From: Escherichia coli
GTDB taxonomy: Bacteria > Pseudomonadota > Gammaproteobacteria > Enterobacterales > Enterobacteriaceae
Strand: one strand, 5' to 3'
DNA length: 64,000 nucleotides
Assembly (NCBI RefSeq): GCF_013315695.1
Contig: NZ_CP054353.1
Shown: in pieces, positions 1,753 through 2,095 of the stretch
How positions within the stretch are numbered: position 1 is the stretch's first letter
Layout: each line of letters begins with the position of its first letter
The notes under the pieces: model-generated
The model's database searches: none
Seen by the model: only the letters and a program-made list of their open reading frames with translations
Told to the model about the DNA's origin: nothing
Translations under genes and position numbers: made by a program

Positions 1753-1961
1753 AAAGAATAAAAAAATCCCGCAGTGATCGCGGACAGGAACTGCGGGAGA
1801 GTTACGAAGATTAAGTGTAAGGAATTATTCTTATATCACGACAAAAAAATTAACGCAGAGAAATTATACGCGCCACAGTCAGTTTGTGAAAATGTGAAGA
1901 TATTCAGAATTTTTATGCCATTACCGGTTTTAACCAACAGGATTATCGGTGGGCATGAAAG

Positions 1962-1998
1962 AAAACCCCGGTATCTGCTGATACCGGGGTTTCTCTTT
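1962..1998. terminator. Bidirectional intrinsic-terminator-like hairpin in the I-J gap
   Basis: Perfect inverted repeat aaccccggtat / ataccggggtt (1964-1991) with T-runs on both strands. Confidence 0.55.
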
Positions 1999-2095
1999 AG
2001 CATGGCAGAAATGTGTTTCATGCTTTTCGGGCGAAGGATATCCGACTTCTGTACGGAATGGCAAGTGGCGGTTAATTTATTCAGGGGAAGGCTGT

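Follow-up and report, generated by a model that had tools for sequence, protein, structure and literature searches.

A predicted pasB-family small RNA gene between tail genes I and J of an Escherichia coli lambdoid prophage

The gap between tail genes I and J

Within the window, by which we mean the whole 64-kb stretch of E. coli DNA analysed here, the first 8.7 kb belong to a lambdoid prophage and correspond to its distal tail region, with all genes on the plus strand (Table 1). The stop codon of the tail assembly gene I (TAA, 1750-1752) and the start of the tail tip and host specificity gene J at 2096 leave a gap of 343 bp (1753-2095). The I-J spacer of strain ATCC 25922 (NZ_CP009072, 3960539-3960881) is identical to that of the window, and the gene following it there is annotated as gpJ. 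ORF borders and the GC profile bear out the initial annotation of the gap as a low-GC spacer of this length, since its GC content falls to 0.375-0.45 against 0.57-0.65 in the flanking tail genes. The statement in the same annotation that I and J are adjacent in lambda is not strictly correct, as a 60-bp gap (15445-15504) separates the two genes there and contains a hairpin of its own. At the far end of the gap, the stretch next to J (1993-2095) is 100% identical in 13 phage records, in each of them in an I-J context only.

Two perfect inverted repeats lie within the gap. The first, next to I, has 9-nt arms that are 100% complementary and 14 nt apart (1767-1775 and 1790-1798); it had been noticed as a hairpin at 1768-1797 followed by a minus-strand T-run, and is present as 1767-1798 with a run of seven U residues (U7) in the RNA. 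The second has 13-nt arms, also 100% complementary, around a 4-nt loop (1963-1975 and 1980-1992), so that the GC-rich repeat with T-runs on both strands described at 1964-1991 is one base wider on each side. By a rough estimate, a perfect short-loop repeat of 13 bp is expected about 5e-5 times in 343 bp.

Table 1. Features of the prophage tail region at the start of the window, with their positions and strand
Feature	Position	Strand	Description
Tail gene L, partial	to 425	+	ORF list
Tail gene K	431-1174	+	ORF list
Tail assembly gene I	1072-1752	+	226-aa ORF; PHROG tail protein / tail assembly protein, E = 1e-87, 2e-79
Predicted pasB-family sRNA, W allele	1760-1856	-	~97-nt primary transcript; covariance-model match
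sRNA intrinsic terminator	1760-1798	-	stem 1798-1790 / 1775-1767, then U7 1766-1760
Conserved block UCCUUACACUUAAUCUUC	1823-1806	-	candidate seed region
A-rich AAGAAUAAU	1832-1824	-	three A-R-N triplets; candidate Hfq-contact region
pasB promoter module	1863-1912	-	-35 TTCACA 1890-1885, 16-nt spacer, -10 TATAAT 1868-1863
Junction hairpin	1963-1992	.	perfect 13-bp stem, T-rich runs on both sides
J-proximal stretch	1993-2095	.	103 nt; holds J ribosome-binding site GGGGAAGG near 2083-2090
Tail tip / host specificity gene J	2096-5788	+	1230-aa ORF
lom	5856-6455	+	ORF list
Side tail fibre gene	6607-8667	+	ORF list

A minus-strand promoter and terminator

On the strand opposite to the tail genes, a consensus scan identified a near-consensus sigma-70 promoter (1890-1863; 11/12 matches) located approximately 100 nt upstream of a minus-strand terminator formed by the I-adjacent repeat (1767-1798). 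A conserved A/T-rich stretch lies upstream of the hexamers within the promoter module (1863-1912), and this module is kept in almost all of 36 promoter-plus-sRNA variants found in IMG/VR. Judging from the spacing to the -10 hexamer, transcription would start at 1856. The I-adjacent hairpin (approximately -16 kcal/mol) consists of a stem CCCGCAG / CUGCGGG followed by AUUUUUUU and was listed on the minus strand by the terminator scan. The T-run ATTTTTTTAT follows the hairpin on the minus strand only and, as the plus strand has none, termination is to be expected in the minus-strand direction alone and the tail operon should not stop at this point. The RNA's 3' end, at approximately 1760, is 8 nt from the stop codon of I.

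Folding of the RNA returns the terminator and little stable structure upstream of it. The most conserved internal block in an alignment of alleles (1806-1832) is partly single-stranded, the MFE fold pairing part of it in a weak 5' hairpin and the centroid of the 86-nt form leaving it open. Features kept across alleles are a 5' GCGUUA that leads into a U-run, an A-rich stretch of three or four A-R-N triplets, the block UCCUU(A/C)AC..U.AUCUUC and the invariant stem CCCGCAG / CUGCGGG with U7. The terminator stem is the same in every allele, which leaves no covariation to support an RNA structure in the family.

Relationship to PasB and EcOnc22/23/24

Five prophage-encoded sRNAs have been discovered in EPEC E2348/69 by RIL-seq and northern blotting (Pearl Mizrahi et al., 2021; PMC8550237). 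One of these, pathogenicity-associated sRNA B (PasB) of this O127:H6 strain, is an 83-nt RNA encoded on the minus strand of prophage PP6 (NC_011601, 1466343-1466261; PMC8550237, Table S6). In the RefSeq record, PasB lies between a tail assembly protein gene ending at 1466255 and gpJ starting at 1466496, on the strand opposite to both. The predicted RNA of the window shares this arrangement, as in both genomes it occupies the I-J gap on the strand opposite to the tail genes, with its 3' end beside, and its terminator abutting, the stop codon of I. The general remark in the initial annotation that pathogenic E. coli are known to carry prophage sRNAs thus finds, in PasB of EPEC, an instance at the same locus and on the same strand.

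Comparison of the two loci indicates a common gene that has diverged mainly in its body. The published PasB northern probe (AATCCCGCAGTGATCGCGGAGCT; PMC8550237, Table S6) matches the window at 20 of its 23 nt, the first 20 of which correspond to 1765-1784. The promoter region is identical to the DNA upstream of E2348/69 PasB at 46 of 49 positions and the last 25 nt of the RNA are identical throughout (25/25), as against 70% identity for the full RNA and approximately 62%, with several indels, for the body preceding the terminator. Within that body the window version, hereafter the W allele, retains the 5' GCGUUA with its U-run, the A-rich stretch and the UCCUU..AUCUUC block of PasB. It differs in having a terminator loop that is 5 nt longer, and in the DNA upstream of the promoter, which is 191 nt long in the window versus 89 nt in E2348/69 and belongs to another module. 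The reported 5' end of PasB lies 15 nt further downstream than the promoter would predict, suggesting either that the RNA is processed or that the prediction is off; the W-allele counterpart of the 83-nt PasB would begin near 1843.

A covariance-model search, which the initial annotation had proposed, was carried out with a model (R1) built from 10 alleles, none of which was of the W type. The model matched the W allele over its full length (window positions 1856-1760, model positions 1-97; 63.4 bits, E = 3.8e-10), and this was its sole match in the 64-kb window; a search of lambda with R1 gave no match. Two further alleles, L049 and L083, mix features of both types and so connect the W and PasB types. 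Sequence features, homology and synteny are observed directly here. With full-length homology to the family, a sigma-70 promoter of its own and an intrinsic terminator with poly-U, the I-J insert is, by sequence, a diverged and unannotated allele of pasB and a member of the published family. The element is accordingly not new in kind, its class having been validated in EPEC and seen in EHEC.

The probable EHEC members are EcOnc22, EcOnc23 and EcOnc24, which were reported as homologous Hfq-bound RNAs in prophages Sp15, Sp14 and Sp11 of the O157:H7 strain Sakai (Tree et al., 2014; PMC4104026, Table S2) and which very probably belong to the same family as PasB, a link that we did not find in the published accounts of PasB and EcOnc22. 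In the Sakai genome (NC_002695.2), their sites are the I-J gaps of these three prophages, on the strand opposite to the tail genes, and model R1 scores each of the three gaps at 102 bits. The EcOnc22/23/24 peaks were obtained by Hfq-CRAC (PMC4104026), and their coordinates refer to an older Sakai assembly for which we inferred an offset of approximately +140 from AgvB (at 1.94 Mb, +137 to +146) and STnc100 (at 3.49 Mb, +99 to +227). Each peak needs a shift of approximately +122 to +154 to fall inside the model match, from which it appears that the offset-corrected peaks coincide with the PasB homologues, the offset having been calibrated at 1.94 and 3.49 Mb, away from these loci. The Sakai allele is the most diverged, with 65% identity to the window RNA and weaker promoter hexamers (TTCCGG / AATAAT).

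No Rfam family reached its gathering score between 1500 and 2400 (best 19.6 bits against a threshold of 60), and relaxing the search of the gap to E values of up to 10 yielded noise only, in the form of terminator-like partial matches to unrelated sRNAs. Likewise, a gathering search of the Sakai Sp15 gap with Rfam 15 returned nothing, and no family in that release matches PasB. Searching the literature for the terminator sequence, or for sRNAs located between genes for tail assembly and host specificity, brought up no additional leads. A gathering search of the whole window recovered CyaR, OrzO-P and a TPP riboswitch only, all outside the gap. An identity with AgvB or AsxR, our first guess, was rejected, as these are encoded outside the tail region, downstream of PR', and are found by Rfam elsewhere in the Sakai genome.

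The gap could in principle encode a small protein. Three ORFs are available for this, namely 1774-2115 on the plus strand and 1836-2120 and 1930-2064 on the minus strand, and one phage record labels a 'hypothetical protein' over the region. The first two had been seen initially to run through the hairpins, as indeed they do; the ORFs cross the conserved promoter and the two terminator hairpins, and none has a PHROG match better than E = 0.09. The GC content of the gap is also far below that of the neighbouring genes, RefSeq annotation is absent among the matches listed, and E2348-type and window-type gaps differ by large indels that preserve no reading frame. We regard a protein-coding function as highly improbable, and an sRNA gene as the preferred reading of the gap.

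Distribution and previous surveys

The whole spacer is present in 1661 of 5426 complete E. coli genomes, in which it may occur in several prophages and at up to six places in one genome. Spacers that are 100% identical to that of the window were found, among the matches listed, in ATCC 25922, CE10, VR50 and an ST648 isolate, indicating that the family is not confined to the diarrhoeagenic strains that gave it its name. The W body occurs in 693 of the 5426 genomes (about 13%) and the E2348-type body in 887, making the W allele, which plain BLAST misses when the published 83-nt sequence is the query, similar in frequency to the published alleles. With that query, megablast aligned nothing in the W allele and blastn aligned only its last 25 nt, which in a very large database would correspond to an E value of approximately 0.3. 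A recent blastn survey reported 1158 PasB matches and described PasB as embedded in a phage structural gene operon with 'a few nucleotide differences' among variants (Zhu, Shabalina and Storz, 2026; bioRxiv 10.64898/2026.05.13.724894). Since blastn aligns just the final 25 nt, the W allele was probably missed by this survey. The W allele itself is thus probably both undescribed and unannotated; among the spacer and body matches listed, no RefSeq annotation underlies the sequence. The missing RefSeq annotation and Rfam family for the pasB locus could be supplied with the present alignment.

The junction hairpin

The 13-bp hairpin folds with approximately -24 kcal/mol on either strand and is flanked by T-rich runs, TTTCTCTTT on the plus and TTTTCTTTC on the minus strand. 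Neither of the corresponding U-rich tracts is continuous (UUUCUCUUU on the plus and UUUUCUUUC on the minus strand), and the hairpin is not in the list returned by the consensus terminator scan. A comparison of I-J junctions, an alignment of which had also been proposed initially, showed the stem of the I-adjacent terminator to be invariant across alleles and a hairpin to be present at seven different junctions. In all seven (lambda, mEp460, 2H10, mEp390, mEp213, E2348 PP6 and Sakai Sp15) it precedes J and is followed by a T-run on the plus, or tail-gene, strand. Gaps without a pasB element measure 60 bp in lambda, mEp460 and 2H10, 53 bp in mEp390 and 41 bp in mEp213. In the 60-bp gap of lambda the hairpin reads AAACCGCC-TGCG-GGCGGTTT followed by TGTCATTT on the tail-gene strand, and its counterparts are GGCCACC-TTCG-GGTGGC-TTTTTTT in mEp390 and GGTGC-TTCG-GCAC-TTTTTTT in mEp213. 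The window hairpin resembles those of the lambda type in being a GC-rich stem-loop that separates I from J and is followed on the tail-gene strand by a T-run, but its stem is longer (13 bp) and of unrelated sequence, it has T-runs on both strands, and it lies 104 nt before J as opposed to 0-45 nt. We know of no published function for the lambda I-J hairpin.

The hairpins at the junctions of lambda, mEp460, 2H10, mEp390 and mEp213 indicate that a terminator-like hairpin is resident between I and J. The 13-bp hairpin is the local version of this resident junction feature and not part of pasB, with the pasB unit (approximately 1753-1912) placed as an insertion between it and the stop codon of I. 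Of the two hairpins initially taken as terminators of one small unit, therefore, the I-adjacent one keeps that role and defines the sRNA, whereas the conspicuous 13-bp palindrome turns out to be a conserved hairpin that precedes J in many lambda-like phages.

Upstream of the pasB promoter, the DNA in which the junction hairpin is located exists in two forms, a long one of 191 nt, found in the window and combined with either RNA allele, and a short one of 89 nt, found in E2348/69. The short form has its own hairpin (CAGGCACC..GGTGCCTG) with a T-run on the tail-gene strand, and in variants of it (CAGGCATCC..GGATGCCTG) a C-G pair of the stem is replaced in compensatory fashion by T-A. Two loci in IMG/VR lack exactly a 47-nt hairpin unit bounded by TTTCT repeats, so the 13-bp hairpin is dispensable, at least in a prophage. 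A structured plus-strand RNA at 1912-1999 (two hairpins, z = -6.5) was considered and rejected, as the few variants break pairs of the first stem without compensation; a promoter scan found no plus-strand promoter for such an RNA.

The minus-strand T-rich run of the 13-bp hairpin raises the prospect of a second minus-strand sRNA of approximately 70-78 nt (~2030-1953), initiated at a weak promoter-like site at 2064-2035 (TTGCCA, 18-nt spacer, TATCCT; 9/12 consensus matches in the promoter scan) and ending at the hairpin with UUUUCUUUC. Such an RNA would fold well (z = -7.8), but almost all of this is due to the hairpin, and the promoter is weak with a poor -10 hexamer. The hairpin moreover has counterparts in lambda, mEp213 and other phages without room for such a gene, the T-run of the short-form counterpart is confined to the plus strand, two natural variants have the hairpin deleted, and an Rfam search of the region found nothing. 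Conservation cannot discriminate here because the long module is almost invariant. On balance, a second sRNA seems to us improbable, and we retain the reading of the hairpin as a junction feature.

The possible roles of the 13-bp hairpin are those of a partial terminator, an mRNA 3' stabilizer or an insulator. On the plus-strand late mRNA, the hairpin (1963-1992) would most likely serve as a terminator through which transcription continues under antitermination, or as an element that stabilizes the 3' end. Being bidirectional, it could in addition keep antisense transcription emerging from J away from the pasB promoter.

sodC cargo and exchange at the junction

A scan of species-representative genomes with protein I recovered four loci only, and led to a further architecture in which the I-J gap contains sodC, oriented opposite to the tail genes. 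This arrangement was found in 539 complete genomes, in prophage Sp10 of Sakai and in the Stx2a phage EH2201. Downstream (3') of sodC lies a W-like RNA body that is matched by model R1 at 51 bits, so that the W body is common to a free-standing gene and to the 3' region of sodC. The sodC moron agrees with the unit of the window in its insertion site, its orientation against the tail genes and an RNA body close to that of the W allele; it differs in that its cargo is a protein-coding gene and in the absence of the pasB promoter. A sigma-70-like site was also looked for in the sodC-linked copies and not found. No Hfq peak was reported at the sodC locus of Sakai Sp10 (PMC4104026).

There are consequently at least four I-J gap architectures, a lambda-like gap of 60 bp, short pasB, long pasB and sodC, and the presence of sodC with a W-like body in the gap identifies the I-J junction as a site at which DNA is swapped. 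It is conceivable, though unlikely, that exchange here involves a single promoter-terminator cassette with swappable sRNA bodies, in which case W would be a functionally distinct sRNA with its own seed and targets that BLAST-based surveys have overlooked and that has moved between 3'-UTR and free-standing contexts, possibly interfering, by way of its full complementarity to the I-J segment of the late mRNA, with the making of tails by its own prophage or by related phages. Exchange at the junction, together with the loss of the promoter from sodC-linked copies, also bears on the question of whether the insert is simply a leftover of past recombination at a hot spot, non-functional and in decay. 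The promoter hexamers and terminator, however, have been kept intact and with almost no variation in hundreds of genomes and in many different prophage backgrounds, and the homologues are abundantly expressed. We therefore consider a remnant very unlikely, and a functional pasB gene the better account of the insert.

Expression of homologues and proposed function

PasB has been detected by northern blotting, is Hfq-dependent, engages in 37 RIL-seq interactions that involve both core and accessory transcripts, and reaches higher levels in the non-activating condition (PMC8550237). RNA-seq tables for EPEC list pasB with base means of 482 under the activating and 1082 under the non-activating condition, values far above those of I (4.8) and J (15), which implies that pasB is transcribed independently of the tail genes in the lysogen. 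EcOnc22 of Sakai gives a northern band of approximately 85 nt and is destabilized in an hfq deletion (PMC4104026). By extension from these E2348/69 and Sakai homologues, the W allele is expected to be transcribed and bound by Hfq; expression, Hfq dependence and pairing in trans are all carried over from the published experiments on them. Together with the promoter, the terminator and the homology to PasB, the expression of the homologues supports the initial suggestion that the tail operon contains a small transcription unit of its own.

The pasB unit behaves as a moron in being extra DNA that is absent from related phages, in having its own promoter and terminator, and in its deviant GC content (0.375-0.45 versus ~0.6). 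Our preferred interpretation, which we hold to be highly probable, is that the gap contains a moron of approximately 160 bp (1753 to ~1912) with a pasB-family sRNA gene that is transcribed in the direction opposite to the tail operon and would act in trans via Hfq, and that the second hairpin belongs to the junction. According to this model, the sigma-70 promoter at 1890-1863 would fire in the lysogen independently of the silent late operon, and transcription from near 1856 would stop at the hairpin and U7 (1798-1760) to give an RNA of approximately 85-97 nt. Hfq would then bind and stabilize the RNA via the U-tail and the A-R-N-rich stretch, as suggested by PasB and EcOnc22, with the poly-U tail of the terminator as the likely site of contact with the Hfq proximal face. 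The RNA would base-pair in trans with host and prophage mRNAs, again as suggested by PasB and EcOnc22, probably via UCCUU...AUCUUC. We infer the seed, as we do the role of the second hairpin, and our nomination of the conserved block with its anti-Shine-Dalgarno-like UCCUU is a guess, because the RIL-seq study obtained significant target motifs for three of the five Pas sRNAs (PasA, PasD1 and PasD2) and not for PasB (PMC8550237). As approximately 38% of the W body, the candidate seed included, differs from PasB, the target set is probably different in part.

The location of the gene also invites a reading in which PasB-W acts mainly in cis or as an antisense RNA, with pairing or convergent transcription lowering J or triggering cleavage of the late mRNA, and thereby serving as a brake on induction or as interference with related phages. 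PasB-W is perfectly complementary to the I-J part of the late mRNA, both that of its own prophage and that of incoming relatives sharing the spacer, copies of which may be present in several prophages of one genome (up to six places). The gene is convergent with the tail operon and lies wholly inside the I-J intergenic region, and every allele and architecture that was examined has it in this position and orientation. Nevertheless, the 37 RIL-seq partners of PasB, drawn from the core and accessory genome, are typical of a trans-acting RNA, and the RNA of the window overlaps neither a coding sequence nor the J ribosome-binding site, ending up more than 230 nt from the J start codon. A predominantly cis-acting role is on these grounds unlikely, and regulation in trans via Hfq remains the interpretation that we favour.

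Close parallels are the anti-sRNAs AgvB and AsxR of EHEC prophages (Rfam RF02702 and RF02703), for which a sponge function has been shown. These differ from the pasB family in being located downstream of PR', near stx and lysis genes, and in their unrelated sequence, with no Rfam match in the gap. They resemble it in being short, Hfq-bound prophage moron sRNAs with their own promoter and intrinsic terminator that are convergent with late transcription, and A-R-N motifs have been reported in the 5' variable region of both.

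Hairpins at the I-J junction

The I-J junctions of lambda, mEp460, 2H10, mEp390, mEp213, E2348/69 PP6, Sakai Sp15 and the window each have, just 5' of J, a GC-rich hairpin with a T-run behind it on the tail-gene strand, and the stems are unrelated in sequence among these junctions. To our knowledge, no function has been described for the pre-J hairpin of lambda-like junctions. A 47-nt unit of the window containing its 13-bp pre-J hairpin is exactly missing from two IMG/VR loci (L096 and L109), and short TTTCT direct repeats flank this indel, which may be a deletion or an insertion. 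Within the gap, the W allele (the diverged PasB version of the window) carries a near-palindrome, TAAGAATAATTCCTTA. The minimum-free-energy fold pairs this sequence into a small 5' hairpin, and we take it to resemble an RcsAB-box-like motif.

Coordinates of junction features and of other RNAs in the window
Feature	Locus	Position	Strand	Remark
Pre-J hairpin	Window	1963-1992	Tail-gene	With T-run
Pre-J hairpin/junction	Lambda (L128)	1246-1305	Tail-gene	With T-run
Pre-J hairpin/junction	L135-L139		Tail-gene	With T-run
Pre-J hairpin/junction	L001	1757-1996	Tail-gene	With T-run
47-nt unit	Window	1957-2003
Near-palindrome	Window	1819-1834	-
sodC and W-type body	Stx2a phage EH2201 (L134)	1641-2354
sodC and W-type body	Sakai Sp10 (L140)	13489-14202
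sodC and W-type body	L133	141-237
OrzO-P antitoxin RNA family	Window	20220-20295	-	Rfam, 98.9 bits
TPP riboswitch	Window	32501-32597	+	71 bits
CyaR	Window	50328-50413	-	101 bits

Other occupants of the site and other RNAs of the window

In some prophages the same I-J site is occupied by sodC, on the strand opposite the tail genes, with a W-type PasB body that lacks a promoter coming after it (covariance model, 51 bits); 539 complete E. coli genomes have this arrangement. Because the T-run of the sodC terminator is weak, this RNA body could be a 3'-UTR-type sRNA. In ATCC 25922 the locus tags DR76_RS19595 and DR76_RS19585 skip one number exactly across the I-J gap, which suggests that a gene was once annotated there and later withdrawn. 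The EcOnc coordinates published for Sakai Sp15, Sp14 and Sp11 (Tree et al., 2014, Table S2; PMC4104026) refer to an older Sakai assembly. Their offset of ~140 nt from NC_002695.2 is a possible source of error when they are mapped onto the current record.

Beyond the tail genes, the presence of a TPP riboswitch and the core small RNA CyaR places the prophage end within the window, the remainder of which is therefore chromosomal. The OrzO-P match points to a type I toxin-antitoxin locus of the zorO-orzO type in this chromosomal part.
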